A DNA stretch of 38,716 nucleotides, taken from the IMG/VR virus record IMGVR_UViG_3300017770_000042, positions 1 to 38,716 of that record; one strand, given 5' to 3'. How positions within the stretch are numbered: position 1 is the stretch's first letter; the number at the start of each line of letters is the position of its first letter. Shown here in pieces: positions 11,003 through 18,664 of the stretch. The notes below the pieces were generated by a model, which saw nothing but the letters and a program-made list of their open reading frames with translations, was not told where the DNA came from and made no database searches. A program made the translations under genes and the position numbers. This stretch comes from a virus. Lineage: Duplodnaviria > Caudoviricetes.

Positions 11003-11021
11003 TCTAAGTGAGTGGGTATTA
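11003..11021 (-). promoter_or_regulatory. Phage RNAP promoter for the replication operon
   Basis: TAATACCCACTCACTTAGA immediately after the RNAP stop; resembles T7/T3 promoters. Confidence 0.8.
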
Positions 11022-11022
11022 A

Positions 11023-13428
11023 TTATGCAAAGAAAAAGGAACTCTCAAGCACGTGGTCTAAAACAAGATTACCTTTAGTTGGTATTGGTTCTATCTCTTT
11101 GTGTCTGTGTTCAGGTAGAACTTCTAAAAGATAATTCCTAAACTCTTCTAGTACATCCATCTGTGAATACATCTCAACAAATGCAGTACGTAATGCACCC
11201 CACATTTCTTCAGCATCTGCAGCATGAGTACCATAGCTATCATGTACCATTGCAAAAGAATGTATGTCTAACTGCTTGGCAACATGAAGAGTAATCATCA
11301 GGTGACTAGCATCAATACTATGTACAAAGTTAGGAGAGATACCATTAGCCTGTCGGTTCTTATCTAACTTACCTGTCTGTGCATACACTCTAGGTTTAAA
11401 TACTTTGCCAAGTAACTTGGTTTGTATCTGACTAGACTTAACTTCTTGGTATGCCTGTAGCACAGGAAGATTACATGGTGTGTCCCACCTGATAGGTAGT
11501 CCTTCTGAAGATGCAACCCTTGCTGCTTTTTGTAACCATGCCATAGCATCAGTTGCTGCATGAACAACCTCAGATATAGATTGCCATATCAACTTGGACA
11601 AGAAGGTTGCTGCTTTAAATACATCCTCACCGAATGGATGTGAGATACCTTTGTCACGTTGCTCAACAATATAATCCATTACAAAATCTGTAAAAGAATA
11701 TTGCTTACCACCATAAGGCAACACCATACATGGACGTTTGCAACAAGACCTAGATACACCATACTCAATCCACTTCTGTGCTAAATCATCTGGCATTTCT
11801 TTTAGCTTATGTGTAACTGTATCAGCTACCTTCTGATAGATGTCTTGTGGGTCATCCATTGGTACAAGATTAACTTCTTTACCTGTAGTCTCTGACCTTA
11901 ACATTGCTGCAAAATGTTGGAGTCCATTACAACTACCATCAGCACAGACAGGAAGACTAGACTCAAAGTTCTCAGGGTCAGCAACAAGACCTTCCCATTC
12001 TTTACAGAAAGCTAAGAACTGAAAAGGTTTATCAGATTCTTTAGCCCACCATAGGTCAGCCAATGGGTCTTTGGCACAGGATAGTATTCTCTCTTGGTTA
12101 TCTTGCACCCAATCAATACGTTCTTGCAAAGATGATTTATCATAACCAAACATATTTGCCCCATGTATAGCTAAGTGACAAGCCCCTTGCTCATTTAATT
12201 TTTTTGCCTCAGAAAAAAGCAGTAGTCCTTTGGCAAAGTCTGTGCCCTGTGGGTTCAGATAGTTTGGTACTGCATAGATACGTCCTCTAAAATCTAACTG
12301 ATACACCATGTAGATAGCCTTCTCATCTTTGAACTTGTCAGCTATCTGTATTGTCTTCCTTAACAAGAGTCTCTTTGATGCCATACGATTGTTCTCTGTA
12401 TGTATGATGACTGCATTTCTTTTCCAATTAATCTTAGCTTGTTTATTGGTAGCAATATCATGTGGCTTGTTAGGAATTTCTGCGTTCTCTGATGGTGGTA
12501 AGCTAGGTAAAGCTATGCCACTATCCCAGATGTCCTTCAGTACCTGTAAGACAAACTGATTGACCTTGAACCCTGTCTGTTGCATGGCATTGACTGCTCC
12601 ATACACCATAGGCATATCAAAGTGCTTGAGTTCTTGTAGGTAGTTCTTGTTCTCAGTCTTAACAAGAGGTATCTGACGAACATGATGAGTGTGATAACCA
12701 CCATCCGTAGGTGTAGTCCAATCTTTAGGTGGAACAACACAAGGATAAAACTCAGGTCTGAGTATCTCTTGGAAAGCACTAAGGTCTTTGATTATCTTTA
12801 GTGTAGTTTCTGATGCCAACAAGAGTTGTCTTCTCTTGCCACCCTTCATCATACTCTTCAGTTCTAACAGACCTGTATTGACTATAGTTAAATCAAGTAA
12901 GGCATTACCCACCAAGAGTTTCTCTCTCTGTGTCCATGATGCCCACTCTTGACCATCTCTTCTTGATGACTCAATTAACTTACGTCTCTTATAAGTATAG
13001 CCTGATGACCTCTTGTCTAGGTCTTTCTTAACTACCCTATACAGACGAGGATTGTTTTCCTCAAAGGTTCTTATCCTCAACTCATCTTCAATAGCCATAC
13101 CTAAAGCTACTGCAGAACTACTATAGTCTCTCTTCCTAGTTATCTGTGATAGTGCCACCCTCAAGGTGATGACTGCTATGACTGATGGCTCTAGGTCATT
13201 CAACAAGACTGCTGATGTAGCTGACTTACCTGACCTACCCTTCATAGAAGATTCTATATGCTCATTGATGGCTTCTTCTACCTTTAAGACTGTCTGTCTC
13301 AAGAGGTATTGACCATAGGTAGTTGTAGATTCTTGGGCTTTCTCTGCTTTTTGTAGGTTATTCTTGTGGAATCTGTGGATTCCTTCTTCTCGCATTTCAC
13401 GTTCTAACGATACTTGTCGTGTGTCCAT
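11023..13428 (-). CDS. Single-subunit DNA-directed RNA polymerase, T7 gp1-like
   Basis: 801 aa; DFRGRIY, DGSCNGLQH, RSCCKRPCMVLPYG, PNFVHSIDA, HDS, C-terminal FFFA. Confidence 0.98.
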   Translation of the reverse strand: MDTRQVSLEREMREEGIHRFHKNNLQKAEKAQESTTTYGQYLLRQTVLKVEEAINEHIESSMKGRSGKSATSAVLLNDLEPSVIAVITLRVALSQITRKRDYSSSAVALGMAIEDELRIRTFEENNPRLYRVVKKDLDKRSSGYTYKRRKLIESSRRDGQEWASWTQREKLLVGNALLDLTIVNTGLLELKSMMKGGKRRQLLLASETTLKIIKDLSAFQEILRPEFYPCVVPPKDWTTPTDGGYHTHHVRQIPLVKTENKNYLQELKHFDMPMVYGAVNAMQQTGFKVNQFVLQVLKDIWDSGIALPSLPPSENAEIPNKPHDIATNKQAKINWKRNAVIIHTENNRMASKRLLLRKTIQIADKFKDEKAIYMVYQLDFRGRIYAVPNYLNPQGTDFAKGLLLFSEAKKLNEQGACHLAIHGANMFGYDKSSLQERIDWVQDNQERILSCAKDPLADLWWAKESDKPFQFLAFCKEWEGLVADPENFESSLPVCADGSCNGLQHFAAMLRSETTGKEVNLVPMDDPQDIYQKVADTVTHKLKEMPDDLAQKWIEYGVSRSCCKRPCMVLPYGGKQYSFTDFVMDYIVEQRDKGISHPFGEDVFKAATFLSKLIWQSISEVVHAATDAMAWLQKAARVASSEGLPIRWDTPCNLPVLQAYQEVKSSQIQTKLLGKVFKPRVYAQTGKLDKNRQANGISPNFVHSIDASHLMITLHVAKQLDIHSFAMVHDSYGTHAADAEEMWGALRTAFVEMYSQMDVLEEFRNYLLEVLPEHRHKEIEPIPTKGNLVLDHVLESSFFFA

Positions 13429-13486
13429 ACTGAACTCTCCATAAAAGTTGTCTACGATTGTCTAAAAAACCTGACGTAAACAGGAT

Positions 13487-13511
13487 TAAAATGCCCCTGA
13501 GAAATCAGGGG
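13487..13511 (-). terminator. Probable intrinsic terminator between attP core and RNAP gene
   Basis: Perfect 7-bp stem CCCCTGA-TTTC-TCAGGGG followed by CATTTT on the minus strand. Confidence 0.6.
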
Positions 13512-13551
13512 ACTTGTTAACTTTATGAAGTATTTGAATTACTTAGAAGGT

Positions 13552-13606
13552 GTGCCCAGGGTCGGACTCGAACCGACATGACTGTTAAGTCGAGGGATTT
13601 TAAGTC
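13552..13606 (-). mobile_element. attP core: 3' half of tRNA-Leu(TAA)
   Basis: Minus strand GACTTAAAATCCCTCGACTTAACAGTCATGTCGGTTCGAGTCCGACCCTGGGCAC: anticodon loop with TAA, long variable arm, T-arm GTCGG-TTCGAGT-CCGAC, acceptor strand. 5' half absent; lies just downstream of the integrase. Confidence 0.9.
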
Positions 13607-13651
13607 GAGTGACTTAGAATTACCAATCTATAATTCAGATACTTACACATA

Positions 13652-14683
13652 TCAGCCTGTCATATTGTCCATAAATTTGTCATCAGATTCTAACACTCTA
13701 CTCGCATCTAAAAGATTTTGCGTATCTAGGTGTGCATATCTTAGAGTCATGTGTATAGACTTATGACCAAGCCATTGTTGTACAACTTGCAGTTGTATTC
13801 CTCGCTGAACAAGACGAGATGCACAGGTGTGACGTAAGCTATGTAAGACAAACTCTTTGTCATCTTGTAGACCCATGTCCTCACGTAGCCATTCCCATAC
13901 ACGTCTTATCTTGTCTTCTGTAAGATTAAATATAGGTTTGTTTTTTAGTCTGCCTTCTGTGTCAATACGAGTCTGTAATATATTTTTGACTCGTCTTGTC
14001 AACGGAACAGTACGAGGATGTCCGTTCTTAGTTTCCCAAACAGAAAGAGTTCCTTTGTCTAGGTCAACGTCACGACAGGACAAACGTAAGCCCTCTCCTC
14101 TACGTAAACCTGTGTCCAACAGGAACAAGAAAAAATCTCTGCAGTCTATCTCTTGTTTAGCAGTTAAGATTTGAACAAGATAGGCTTCTTCTTCTTGGAT
14201 TAAATATCTTAGTCTACCATTCTTAGTTGGTATCCAATCAAGTTTAGGTTTCCTATCTATCCACCCTCTGTCTACTGCTAGATTTAGTGACTTAGATATA
14301 CAAGCACTAATCTTGTTGAGTGATGATGCTGATGCACCATTCTTTTTGAAGTGTTGTATAACGTCATCAATCAGAGTGGCACTTATGTCTGCAATAGGAA
14401 CATGACGTCCCATGACATCAAGTATTTTATCTTGTCTACGTATCTGTGTTAGACCCCAATCAGAGTCTGACCAATACTTATCTGCAGTTTTACGGAACAA
14501 GATTTCAGATGTCATACCTAAGACACAGTTTGCCTCTGGTAAAGGTAACCCATCTTCAATACATTTCATACAATGCTTCTCAAGTTTGACTGCATCATTC
14601 CTAGAGGAACATGACTTGCGAAATACGACACCCTTCTTACGAATGTCTACTTGCCAAGCATTTGCTATTTTTCTAATTGGCAT
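13652..14683 (-). CDS. int: Tyrosine integrase
   Basis: TGLRRGE (R), TKNG (K), HSLRHTCASRL (HxxR), WLGHKS (H), TLRYAH (Y). Confidence 0.95.
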   Translation of the reverse strand: MPIRKIANAWQVDIRKKGVVFRKSCSSRNDAVKLEKHCMKCIEDGLPLPEANCVLGMTSEILFRKTADKYWSDSDWGLTQIRRQDKILDVMGRHVPIADISATLIDDVIQHFKKNGASASSLNKISACISKSLNLAVDRGWIDRKPKLDWIPTKNGRLRYLIQEEEAYLVQILTAKQEIDCRDFFLFLLDTGLRRGEGLRLSCRDVDLDKGTLSVWETKNGHPRTVPLTRRVKNILQTRIDTEGRLKNKPIFNLTEDKIRRVWEWLREDMGLQDDKEFVLHSLRHTCASRLVQRGIQLQVVQQWLGHKSIHMTLRYAHLDTQNLLDASRVLESDDKFMDNMTG

Positions 14684-14718: not shown

Positions 14719-14973
14719 TTAAAATAAAGGGTCAAACAAGATACCTTTTTGCATTAATTTATGATAATGATTTGCTTGTGATTTGTAGAACTCTGCTCGT
14801 TGGGAGTTCTCGTCCCATTCAAAGTCATACTGAAGTTGACGTAGCTTTTTATATTCGCTTACTACGTCAACAAGATGTGTGTTTGTTGGTATTGGGTCAA
14901 TGTACAAGTATCTTCTCCTCTTTAACTCTGTAAAAATCTGAATCATTAGTACATATATCGTTATCCTCATCAT
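14719..14973 (-). CDS. Hypothetical early protein (true start probably ~14907)
   Basis: ORF track; fills the gap before the integrase. Confidence 0.55.
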   Translation of the reverse strand: MMRITIYVLMIQIFTELKRRRYLYIDPIPTNTHLVDVVSEYKKLRQLQYDFEWDENSQRAEFYKSQANHYHKLMQKGILFDPLF

Positions 14974-15187
14974 AATAACAAGAGTAGATAGAACAATATG
15001 TCACATTAGTAACATCATCAGTCCATATATTAAAATCATATGGTCTATCTCTGTACCAAAATGAGTGCCAAGTATCACCAATGTCATCATTTTGTATTGC
15101 TTCTGCCCACATAGTTTTTACTGAAGCATCAACAAACAATTTAAATTTATTACTTGTTTTATATTCAAGTTCAATCAGGTTCATCAT
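14897..15187 (-). CDS. Hypothetical early protein
   Basis: 96 aa, AAGGA RBS, packed in operon. Confidence 0.7.
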   Translation of the reverse strand: MMNLIELEYKTSNKFKLFVDASVKTMWAEAIQNDDIGDTWHSFWYRDRPYDFNIWTDDVTNVTYCSIYSCYYDEDNDICTNDSDFYRVKEEKILVH

Positions 15188-15347
15188 CAGTCCTTTCTAT
15201 AGGTAAATAAACGTCAACATGAGAGTTACAATTAGGGTTAGGACAAGAGAGGTTAGTGACTATACCTTCGTATGCATAGCCATCCTCCTCGCTTATATCA
15301 TGGTCACCACCCCATATTAATTCAGTATTACAATGCCAACAGTTCAT
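15171..15347 (-). CDS. Small zinc-ribbon protein (58 aa), not in ORF track
   Basis: MNCWHCNTELIWGGDHDISEEDGYAYEGIVTNLSCPNPNCNSHVDVYLPIERTDDEPD; start overlaps the upstream stop (TAATG). Confidence 0.8.
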   Translation of the reverse strand: MNCWHCNTELIWGGDHDISEEDGYAYEGIVTNLSCPNPNCNSHVDVYLPIERTDDEPD

Positions 15348-15709
15348 TAGTTTCCCTTAGTACAATAAGTATTTATTTGTGAGTCATCACCATACTCAGT
15401 ACCATGATACTCAACAGAAGACGTATCAAGATGGGCTACTTGTCCTTCAGCATAACCATGCTCACTACATAATTCTCCTACTTGTTCATCAGTCAATGGA
15501 ACGTCTGACTCTACAGTCCATGTCCTGATGTCAACTGATTGTTCTTCATGTGTATATCTATACTTCACAGAGTCCTCCTCTAAAGTTTCTAATCGTTCTA
15601 TCATTTGTTTATATTGTTCGTCATTACTTTGAGTACAACCATCAAGACCTAACATATCTTTGATAGCATACTTAACCTTTAATAGTTCTAGTTTAATTTT
15701 CTGTGTCAT
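15347..15709 (-). CDS. Hypothetical acidic early protein
   Basis: 120 aa, TAATG coupling on both sides. Confidence 0.7.
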   Translation of the reverse strand: MTQKIKLELLKVKYAIKDMLGLDGCTQSNDEQYKQMIERLETLEEDSVKYRYTHEEQSVDIRTWTVESDVPLTDEQVGELCSEHGYAEGQVAHLDTSSVEYHGTEYGDDSQINTYCTKGN

Positions 15710-15951
15710 TAAACTTGTTCCTTTATAAATACTTTATTCCAAGTTTCTTCAATCTCATCATCAAGATTACCTTCTTCAATAAAATCTAGTTGGTCTTTGA
15801 CGTATTGCATACGACATTGTTCAAGTGTCCAAAAGTCTGTTGCTACTTCTTCAAAAAACAATACAGGTTGAAGTTCTTCCTTGCTCATATTTAATGCTTG
15901 GTAATATAAAATATTAACCAATGCTTTTTTATATCGTGTTTCTACTTTCAT
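15709..15951 (-). CDS. Hypothetical acidic early protein
   Basis: 80 aa, GGAG RBS. Confidence 0.7.
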   Translation of the reverse strand: MKVETRYKKALVNILYYQALNMSKEELQPVLFFEEVATDFWTLEQCRMQYVKDQLDFIEEGNLDDEIEETWNKVFIKEQV

Positions 15952-15954
15952 TGT

Positions 15955-16242
15955 TTACTCCACTTCAATACCAATTTGGTCTACGTCATTTATAGTTAAC
16001 TTAATAGTATCTCCAACTTTGATGTACTTCTTCCACATAGGAAAAGCTATACGTCTATCTTTCCTACCCTTAGTCCTAAATAGTTTAAGAGTACAATCAT
16101 CTTCGTATATACCTCTAATCATGTAGTAAGCACCATAAGTATTGAATGGTTCTTCACCAAAGTAATGCTCAAAGAAACCCATGACAGACTTGTTAGCATC
16201 TATACAAGACTTGTCATACATTGTTTGTGTTACAGTAATCAT
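15955..16242 (-). CDS. Hypothetical early protein
   Basis: 95 aa, strong GGAGG RBS. Confidence 0.75.
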   Translation of the reverse strand: MITVTQTMYDKSCIDANKSVMGFFEHYFGEEPFNTYGAYYMIRGIYEDDCTLKLFRTKGRKDRRIAFPMWKKYIKVGDTIKLTINDVDQIGIEVE

Positions 16243-16251
16243 TTAGTCCTC

Positions 16252-16410
16252 CTATATATTTAATTGGCTTAAGTTATCTAAGGCTAAGTTATCTAGTACT
16301 AAGTACCTTACCTCTGTATAACAATCATCACATAATAATAAATCTGATATATTGTTTGCCATATCTTCAGGGTTACCCTTAACCTCTTTACATTTACCAC
16401 ATTTAATCAT
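16252..16410 (-). CDS. Small zinc-finger protein (52 aa), not in ORF track
   Basis: MIKCGKCKEVKGNPEDMANNISDLLLCDDCYTEVRYLVLDNLALDNLSQLNI; two CxxC; GGAGG RBS. Confidence 0.8.
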   Translation of the reverse strand: MIKCGKCKEVKGNPEDMANNISDLLLCDDCYTEVRYLVLDNLALDNLSQLNI

Positions 16411-16431
16411 TTAGTCCTCCATTAAAGTTAA

Positions 16432-16483
16432 TACTTGTAGACACATGGAAAAACTATGAAGAAAAGCCATGTGTCTACAAATA
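16432..16483 (-). promoter_or_regulatory. Long leader hairpin (RNase III-site-like)
   Basis: Perfect 14-bp inverted repeat TTGTAGACACATGG (16435-48) / CCATGTGTCTACAA (16467-80), extended by a G-U pair on the minus strand. Confidence 0.65.
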
Positions 16484-16549
16484 CAAACTTACATATAGGA
16501 AGTGCTATATAAAATTACAAGAGGGAACAAGAAAAAAAATTTATGAAGG

Positions 16550-16564
16550 GAACAAGAAGGGAAC
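16550..16564. promoter_or_regulatory. Alphaproteobacterial-type LexA (SOS) box over a candidate early promoter
   Basis: GAAC-AAGAAGG-GAAC = GAAC-N7-GAAC; extra half-site at 16525-28; minus-strand TTGTTC-N17-TAAATT overlaps it. Confidence 0.65.
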
Positions 16565-16667
16565 AAGATGCAAAATATGGTGAATTTTTGGGAAATTTTA
16601 GAATATAGATTATTAACTTGTTAAATAAAATTCTCGAGCTGAGTTTTTTTAATTAATTTTAGGCAAT

Positions 16668-16705
16668 AAAAAAGGTCTATAAAAATTAATCTATAGACCT
16701 TTTTT
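16668..16705. terminator. Intrinsic terminator (potentially bidirectional) closing the first-entry module
   Basis: AAAAAAGGTCTATA...TATAGACCTTTTTT inverted repeat directly after the 16706 stop codon. Confidence 0.75.
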
Positions 16706-17314
16706 TTATTTAACCTTTTCAATAATAGTAGTCGTTTTATTTTTGGTGTAACAAAGTAAACAATCTTTACATTTAGAAAAACAATTTATTTTAAAATCAT
16801 TAACTTTGTCTTTAGTAATATTATTAAATGTTTTATCAAAATGTTTAATTGGAAAATAAACAGGTTTGTTTAATTTACTATTTGAATAAACCAAAAATAA
16901 GTTTTTAGGTTTTTTATGAGTATCAAAAAATATGGTTATTAAATCATATCTTTTAGACCATAATGTAAAATTACAATGTTTATTCTTTTTTGCAATATTT
17001 ACCAGATTTTCAAGATGTATTAAATTAATTAATTCACCATGCGAATTGAACCTAAAATAACTATTAAATATAGTAGGTAATAAAGATTTTTGAATTAATT
17101 GCTCACTTAATAAACGACTATTCTTATCTAAAACATTTACCATATTTTTACGAAAAGTTTTTAATGATTTTTGGCTATAACATAAACTACAAATAGACTT
17201 TTTATTTTTAGCTTGTTTACTACAATAATCATTAGTTAAGGTATTTGTTGAAATACTATTAATTAACTCTAGTTTTCCAGAACCTTTTGAAATATGTATT
17301 TGTGAAAATTCCAT
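16706..17314 (-). CDS. Phage GP88-like Cys-rich protein (radical-SAM-like features)
   Basis: Start MEFSQ at 17314 with AAGGGG RBS; C-x9-C-x2-CY, FRFNSHGE, LWSKR, C-terminal C-x3-C-x2-C-x2-C. Confidence 0.65.
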   Translation of the reverse strand: MEFSQIHISKGSGKLELINSISTNTLTNDYCSKQAKNKKSICSLCYSQKSLKTFRKNMVNVLDKNSRLLSEQLIQKSLLPTIFNSYFRFNSHGELINLIHLENLVNIAKKNKHCNFTLWSKRYDLITIFFDTHKKPKNLFLVYSNSKLNKPVYFPIKHFDKTFNNITKDKVNDFKINCFSKCKDCLLCYTKNKTTTIIEKVK

Positions 17315-17348
17315 TTTAAACCCCTTGTAATAGTTAAAAGTTAATATC

Positions 17349-17367
17349 CAAGGTTTTAGAAGGTTAG
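17349..17367. repeat. Arm of long-range inverted repeat (partner 18090-18108)
   Basis: CAAGGTTTTAGAAGGTTAG is the exact reverse complement of CTAACCTTCTAAAACCTTG. Confidence 0.9.
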
Positions 17368-17476
17368 ACGATTTAAAACCGTCCAAACCCTTTTAAAATG
17401 TTTTTAAGCTATAATTAATATAAAACCAATAAAGCTAATTAATAAGATTGTTTCAAGTAATGCTTTAATAATCATA

Positions 17477-18489: not shown

Positions 18490-18625
18490 CTCAGATTTTT
18501 TTAGTAAAACTAAAGGCTCATTTCAAGCCTCACCTAAAGTAACACCTAAAGTAATACTTAAAGAAATGACATATCCCTATTACCTATATACTACCTATAT
18601 AGTTATACTATAGTTATACTATAGT
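18490..18625. repeat. Genome-end/packaging region with short repeats (T7 SRR-like)
   Basis: CACCTAAAGTAA x2 plus degenerate third (18531-63), TACCTATATA x2, TAGTTATACTA x2; minus-strand AAAAATCTGAG at 18490-18500. Confidence 0.7.
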
Positions 18626-18641
18626 GGGGTTTACCCCCCTA

Positions 18642-18660
18642 TCTATGTGAGGGGGTATTA
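18642..18660 (-). promoter_or_regulatory. Phage RNAP promoter, phiOR-like (packaging/replication)
   Basis: TAATACCCCCTCACATAGA just after the terminase stop, pointing into the end repeats. Confidence 0.8.
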
Positions 18661-18664
18661 ATTG

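Follow-up and report, generated by a model that had tools for sequence, protein, structure and literature searches.

In HTVC019P-type pelagiphages, the attachment site (attP) lies in the spacer between the integrase gene (int) and the RNA polymerase (RNAP) gene in all 12 phages with mapped sites; the targets are tRNA genes, including tRNA-Leu(TAA), and integration was shown by PCR (10.1101/410191). In phage LUZ100, a terminator after int stops most transcripts, a phage promoter precedes RNAP and a MarR gene precedes int (PMC10134795). The authors of that work suggest that sporadic read-through leads on to positive feedback and that MarR represses in lysogeny; no stable lysogen was obtained (PMC10134795). 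The T7-like cyanophages S-TIP37 and P-SSP7 have int and an attP matching tRNA-Leu, and no known repressor is reported for them in the accessible part of PMC8776855. In T7-like cyanophages that carry int and, downstream of it, attP, integration does not lead to stable lysogeny; deletion mutants of int and attP were constructed, and loss of int left fitness unchanged (PMC8776855). Lysogeny of the Bacillus tectivirus GIL01, a non-integrating linear replicon (PMC9700832), is kept by host LexA, and not by a repressor of its own, with the help of small phage proteins (PMC6182141). For the latency of T7-like phages, which are built on one strong polymerase, the MarR model is a hypothesis of the LUZ100 paper (PMC10134795).

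The window (the whole stretch of DNA analysed, a virus record of 38.7 kb from a marine T7-like phage) shares with the HTVC019P type a T7-like genome, a tyrosine integrase upstream of RNAP and an attP in the int-RNAP spacer. It differs from the five int-bearing isolate records of this type, which have MarR beside int and no GTTC box upstream, and it carries a tRNA 3' half, so that the restored tRNA would lie in front of RNAP. The accessible part of the pelagiphage preprint does not use the words repressor, LexA or terminator (10.1101/410191). With LUZ100 it shares the order int, terminator or hairpin, RNAP, and a proposed read-through as first source of RNAP. LUZ100 has MarR, a T-tailed terminator and the promoter phi1 in its spacer, whereas the window has neither MarR nor such a promoter and its hairpin is weakly tailed. 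S-TIP37 and P-SSP7 resemble it in int, tRNA-Leu attP and lack of a known repressor; LexA control is not mentioned in the accessible part of PMC8776855. GIL01 differs in having no phage RNAP, no att site and a different LexA box. The int-attP-RNAP layout is already known from published work on pelagiphages and, in combination with a terminator, on LUZ100 (10.1101/410191; PMC10134795). The new features are the loss of MarR and of its presumed operators, LexA-type boxes, and attP deletions in the wild. No description of LexA boxes or of MarR loss in T7-like phages was found in the literature searched (titles and beginnings of abstracts).

The clade of the window is a natural MarR knockout that has kept att and int, gained LexA-type boxes and shed attP in the wild, so that the parts of the switch can be tested separately. 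If the model of the first-pass annotation of this DNA were true, it would be a lysis-lysogeny switch without phage repressor, run by recombination geometry. Recombination at attP is a genetic switch in the integration-dependent immunity of mycobacteriophage BPs and in the sib retroregulation of lambda. There, attP splits a repressor gene (BPs) or parts int from a downstream decay signal (lambda); in the window, it would part promoters from the gene of the master polymerase. Boeckman 2022 may already discuss the parting of RNAP from its promoters by integration.

Genome organization

The window has the T7 gene order and its minus strand carries all genes. The T7-like (Autographivirales) set includes single-subunit RNAP, SSB, endonuclease, amidase, primase-helicase, DNA polymerase A, exonuclease, portal, capsid, tail and terminase genes. 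The record break falls within the scaffold gene; the early region is therefore contiguous. The T7-type single-subunit RNAP (801 aa; 11023..13428, minus strand; PF00940, PF14700) is 40-44% identical to the RNAPs of pelagiphages and LUZ100. Its ribosome-binding site (13437..13440, minus strand), assigned from the sequence, is retained in the deletion variants described below. The tyrosine integrase (343 aa, intact; 13652..14683, minus strand; PF00589, phrog_1) is 26-40% identical to integrases of integrating T7-like phages and is encoded upstream of RNAP, as in those phages (HTVC019P-type, LUZ100, Pasto). Its catalytic residues R/K/H-x-x-R/H/Y are invariant in the comparison with relatives, among which dN of int is far below dS. 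The int-RNAP spacer is 223 bp long.

The first-pass annotation had described, in the direction of transcription, early genes, int, a tRNA-Leu 3' half, a GC-rich hairpin and RNAP. This minus-strand order is confirmed, with early ORFs at 14719-16410 and a tRNA-Leu(TAA) half. The seven small early ORFs (14719..16410, minus strand) match no Pfam family and no named PHROG, and none is MarR-like.

Loss of MarR

A MarR profile built from 8 reference phages has no match in the six frames of the whole window. A MarR gene is found directly upstream of int in 11/11 integrase-bearing reference phages (the 8 that built the profile and 3 independent ones) and in 15/15 sister-clade loci with at least 175 nt upstream. 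In the clade of the window, MarR is found in 0/7 loci with at least 2.8 kb upstream, versus 26/26 elsewhere. The MarR and box counts leave out six sister-clade loci (L078, L231, L234, L239, L240 and L242; almost nothing upstream of int, or int-less), two isolates that lack int, MarR and the box alike, and L009, in which the 968 nt upstream hold neither MarR nor a box.

In the RNAP tree, the window, its close relatives, L084 and L225 form one clade (FastTree support 1.0) with MarR-bearing outgroups; the loss of MarR is therefore derived. Six of the seven clade loci are near-identical phages and L084 is the sole independent member; the clade is one evolutionary event with two independent members.

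Repeats of the ATCCAC/GTGGAT type, a motif picked by eye from the same spacers in which it was counted, are present in 2-4 copies per spacer in 19/19 sister-clade loci and in 2 copies in LUZ100; the window and L084 have 0. These repeats are plausible MarR operators. In their place, a GC hairpin follows the tRNA half in the window and in L084.

Attachment site

The 3' half of a tRNA-Leu(TAA) gene (13553..13606, minus strand) is assigned as attP from sequence, covariation and scripted joins. It runs from the anticodon loop to the discriminator, with an invariant 16-bp core (~13591-13606) across the anticodon loop. Over 6 phage variants, 54/54 cells are paired (100%) and 4/9 pairs have two-sided changes (a count from 6 related sequences, not a probability). 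Scripted joins of 3 phage variants with 4 stand-in host 5' halves give a whole tRNA-Leu(taa) on the RNAP side in 12/12 cases and on the int side in 0/12. This geometry, together with the covarying tRNA half, bears out the earlier claim that RNAP would end up behind the restored host tRNA, and supports the claim that recombination would part it from the early promoters. From these sequence features, the spacer likely holds a working attachment site for the host tRNA-Leu(TAA) gene. ARAGORN finds no whole tRNA in the window, and Rfam gives only miRNA matches at chance level.

Two TAGACAA direct repeats (13448..13464, minus strand) and three NGACA repeats within the 3' end of int (13657..13682, minus strand) are likely integrase arm sites, a function suggested by their sequence. 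L084 has GGGACA repeats at the position matching that of the TAGACAA repeats, and sister-clade loci have similar repeats at the end of int. NGACA repeats on both sides of the core, recurrent in relatives, would fit integrase arm sites.

The same tRNA-Leu anticodon-loop core is found in HTVC200P, HTVC119P, L088 and L010, and in the LUZ100 spacer (L066:3900-4000), where it lies just before terminator T4 and is an apparent attP. The LUZ100 record lists no attP feature, and the term attP is never used in the accessible part of PMC10134795.

Hairpins and promoters of the spacer

The GC-rich hairpin (13494..13511, minus strand; -12.8 kcal/mol, z -4.0, 0/200 shuffles as good) has a weak U tail. Its stem is kept in close relatives, with loop inversions and a G-U change; L084 has a different stem sequence at this position. 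In the 8 bases that follow the stem, T occurs 4-5 times in 9 close loci and twice in L084, compared with 8 T for the hairpin after the capsid gene of the window. Of the features of intrinsic terminators, the stable GC-rich stem is present and a conserved U-rich tail is absent. The element had been annotated as a terminator: the hairpin is well supported, but its tail (4-5 T in 8; 2 in 8 in L084) does not support termination. Judged from its sequence, it probably acts as a leaky attenuator or as a processing stem. With a weak U tail that is not conserved, read-through probably amounts to simple leak, which answers without an antiterminator the earlier question of how the hairpin is passed in lytic growth. 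The 4-base loop (13501-13504) is inverted in some relatives (L002, L008).

The second hairpin with a T run that had been proposed (13464..13484, minus strand; -3.8 kcal/mol, z -0.83) is unsupported as a feature: 26/200 shuffles are as good, the T run is broken in several relatives and the hairpin is absent from L084.

Between 13437 and 13530, the best sigma70-like site scores 7/12, below the shuffle mean of 8.2, and there is no copy of the phage-RNAP promoter motif. A 9/12 promoter-like site straddling the core (13597-13626) was set aside: it is upstream of the hairpin, and L084 differs there. A strong independent host promoter at 13429-13490, which the first-pass annotation had named as evidence that would count against its model, is thus not seen by sequence. 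A reading in which the hairpin is only a replacement tRNA trailer, an unrecognised promoter between attP and the gene drives RNAP, and integration is not the switch, is very unlikely. LUZ100 offers a precedent in phi1, a phage-RNAP promoter between terminator T4 and RNAP (PMC10134795, accessible part); moreover, the promoter consensus of the host may differ, and the phage motif rests on two copies. Against this, the spacer has no motif match, and L009 has lost nearly the whole spacer (~36 nt left), so that no promoter located there can be essential.

Good copies of the phage-RNAP promoter motif occur at two places only (11022, 18661); no copy was found before the capsid gene. The first predicted promoter, before the SSB gene (11003..11022, minus strand), is a 20-mer identical in close relatives and nearly identical to the second, after the terminase gene (18642..18661, minus strand). 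The role of this 20-mer is inferred by analogy with T7 organisation. At 18540-18661, the motif precedes AT-rich repeats, short and in tandem, along with a small hairpin; this is likely the genome-end region.

Candidate early promoter and LexA-type boxes

A candidate early promoter (16493..16521, minus strand) matches 10/12 positions of an alphaproteobacterial-type sigma70 consensus. A second 10/12 site, of the E. coli type, is at 16595-16624. A strong T-flanked, terminator-like hairpin (16667..16705, minus strand; -18.2 kcal/mol) lies upstream of the early promoter, and L084 has a counterpart at the equivalent place. Between the GTTC box and int, the early stretch has no hairpin below -7 kcal/mol with a T tail. 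A 9/12 promoter-like site at 14735 could, by its sequence, express int without LexA. A GP88-family gene (PF17338; 379 homologues at E 1e-10 or better) is located at 16706-17386, before the terminator-like hairpin. The leader of the first early gene contains, on the downstream side of the candidate promoter, a long inverted repeat (16420-16495; -31.2 kcal/mol), which is a possible processing or regulatory stem.

A GTTC-N7-GTTC motif (16550..16564, minus strand), presumably the alphaproteobacterial LexA box, is predicted to bind LexA. It includes two of three clustered TGTTCCC repeats, the third starting at 16529. The window has 0 E. coli-type LexA boxes. The LexA box of the first-pass annotation is retained in part: the single GTTC-N7-GTTC of the window lies within the 295-bp early-promoter stretch (p ~0.004, the stretch having been chosen after the match was seen), but its genome-wide occurrence is at chance level (59/100 shuffles). 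Comparison with relatives gives such a box upstream of int in 7/7 clade loci versus 1/17 MarR-bearing loci with at least 2.4 kb upstream; the clade boxes are ~1.6-2.7 kb upstream of int, at the early promoter. L084 (RNAP 81% identical) has two perfect boxes at positions non-homologous to that of the window (0/20000 shuffles). With a matrix made from lexA boxes of candidate hosts, the window box ranks second, level with background (11.9 vs 12.0), and the L084 boxes rank first and second. The MarR-bearing roseophage CRP-804 (L251) has one GTTC-N7-GTTC ~720 bp upstream of int, directly before the gene preceding marR-int, which may be due to chance or to joint control by LexA and MarR.

One early ORF (15955..16242, minus strand) encodes a 95-aa protein with a predicted B3/EcoRII-N DNA-binding fold, a candidate phage regulator. 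Its AlphaFold model has a pLDDT of 77 and derives from a 3-sequence alignment. The leading Foldseek rows are B3-family proteins with probability near 1.0 and a best E of 1.7e-3 (none at or below 1e-3). The protein has no Pfam match and an atlas lead of 0.84; the viral fold library gives one match, and a profile-free search gives 15 relatives; small relatives of the protein exist. Among the early genes, its own is the best conserved (99-100% identity across 6 clade loci); a 43% homologue is found in the MarR-bearing L233. The modelled fold could correspond to a repressor, to a LexA helper as in GIL01 or to an anti-restriction factor. The description of the phage as repressor-free therefore stands as regards MarR, absent from the clade by profile search, but is weakened by this early gene. 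The protein is 100% identical in the window and L084 (L084:2105-2392) despite RNAPs that are 81% identical, and this sequence identity suggests a recent exchange of the gene between the two lineages.

This protein may have replaced MarR by binding the three clustered TGTTCC(C/A) repeats that the window and L084 both have at their early promoter, the likeness to LexA boxes being partly incidental. This is rated as improbable. The fold, the conservation of the gene and the shared triplet speak for it, but no PDB match reaches E 1e-3 and the model comes from 3 sequences. Moreover, the two perfect N7 boxes of L084 are separate from its triplet, a homologue occurs in a MarR-bearing phage, the full identity with L084 may reflect recent exchange, and a B3 fold could equally serve anti-restriction.

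Proposed switch

The best explanation, held at somewhat below even confidence, is that of an attP-bearing clade without MarR and operator-like repeats and with a switch based on leak and LexA. In the free phage, host polymerase would start at the early promoter, pass int and leak past the weak hairpin, giving the first RNAP, which would then drive middle and late genes. Upon integration, the host tRNA promoter would take the place of the early promoter in front of RNAP; cleavage would release the restored tRNA from its transcript and the hairpin would damp the remaining read-on, keeping RNAP low. The early operon, at the other end of the prophage, is predicted to be repressed by host LexA. With LexA lifted by DNA damage, excision of the prophage by int would restore the connection to RNAP. 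Further control, encoded by the phage, may come from the B3-fold early protein.

The first-pass annotation had considered the prophage to be silenced by topology. This is overstated: the host tRNA promoter faces the same hairpin after integration, and topology is therefore not enough to silence RNAP. For silence, 3' processing of the tRNA, a decay of the trailer, which is untranslated, or a weaker input would be needed. A stricter form of the model, in which the repressor was discarded, integration unplugs RNAP from its only promoters, LexA shuts the int operon and SOS excision rewires the circuit, is tentative and leans towards the unlikely. The view of the co-occurring attP-deleted variants as hard-wired lytic derivatives is part of this form and is covered by the same joint estimate.

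Natural attP deletions and search for integrated copies

In L005-L007, 191 bp are missing (13465-13655, with 5 bases instead); the core and both hairpins are gone and int is full length. L009 has a different, larger loss, with ~36 nt between the int match and RNAP. In these attP-less variants (L005-L007, L009), int is joined directly to the ribosome site of RNAP. The GTTC box is kept (L005/L222). Contigs of run X10 include the 191-bp deletion form beside the intact form, and run X11 has the deletion form alone; X10 and X11 are from two studies. Run X12 is intact and run X20 (guessed to be RNA) has another joint. The depths of run contigs are not frequencies. The existence of variants without attP and hairpins implies that the spacer is dispensable for propagation and that RNAP can likely be fed from upstream transcripts alone. 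The variants also fit a drift towards lytic life. The dN/dS values of L009 int (0.05/0.52) were not counted as a sign that int stayed functional once attP was lost, as the divergence may predate that loss.

The search for attL and attR in metagenomes that had been proposed with the earlier model gave none in 5 viral and 8 metagenome pattern matches nor in four runs; these searches are shallow. The loose ends of run contigs at 13606 are short tRNA contigs with no continuation into phage DNA. A T7-like RNAP is found in 0/126 genomes of the best candidate host order. The exact att pattern has 0 matches in genome contigs, and a looser pattern gives 21 loci, none exact. The exact match is also absent from samples of 401 Pseudomonadota and 401 alphaproteobacterial-class genomes, from 61 + 81 + 41 + 151 relatives, and from 126 order-level and 44 small genomes.

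These results bear on an alternative in which the phage is essentially lytic and integrates rarely or transiently, without stable lysogeny: loss of MarR and then of attP would lead to an obligately lytic phage, and the GTTC boxes would only tune early expression. The precedent is that of cyanophages with int and attP, in which no repressor was found and which gave no stable lysogens (PMC8776855, accessible part). At least two different natural attP deletions, and the failure to find an integrated copy in the pattern matches, the four runs and the 126 genomes, point the same way. However, every base pair of the tRNA half is kept despite differences between relatives, the arm-like repeats and the hairpin are retained at 60% int identity, and two lineages have perfect boxes, each at its own position; in addition, integrated copies were sought only in shallow searches. 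On balance, this alternative is considered unlikely, and the switch based on leak and LexA is preferred.

Candidate hosts

The best among 84 distinct host-type tRNA halves share 48-49/54 bases with attP and are mostly from one gammaproteobacterial order, whose variable arms recur in phage variants. As regards SAR11, the host of pelagiphages, the tRNA-Leu(TAA) 5' part carried by HTVC109P would pair only incompletely, in the anticodon stem, with the 3' half of the window. Bins of Dadabacteria and Deltaproteobacteria have a few bases in common with the window past the tRNA end, but in the two checked, which are incomplete genomes, no LexA was found; they were not assigned as hosts. A recA box is absent in 5/5 candidate genomes checked. 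No locus was found for the integrase P0009.

In the gammaproteobacterial group, divergent lexA genes have an exact GTTC-N7-GTTC or its reverse upstream in 12/16 loci, plus L211 (L144 in G003, L164-L171, L173-L175, L211), often as an inverted pair of boxes; canonical lexA loci of the group have the box in 0/15. The divergent lexA boxes would reconcile a gamma-like tRNA with an alpha-like box.

In G003, a whole tRNA-Leu(TAA) is accompanied by two 3' halves in a stretch of 14 kb (G003:C1:2550946-2564383), an arrangement of sequence that suggests tandem islands inserted at the same core. P0160, an L084-type integrase, is filed under a Lentimicrobiaceae bin with contigs of up to 38.6 kb and is probably from a mis-binned phage.
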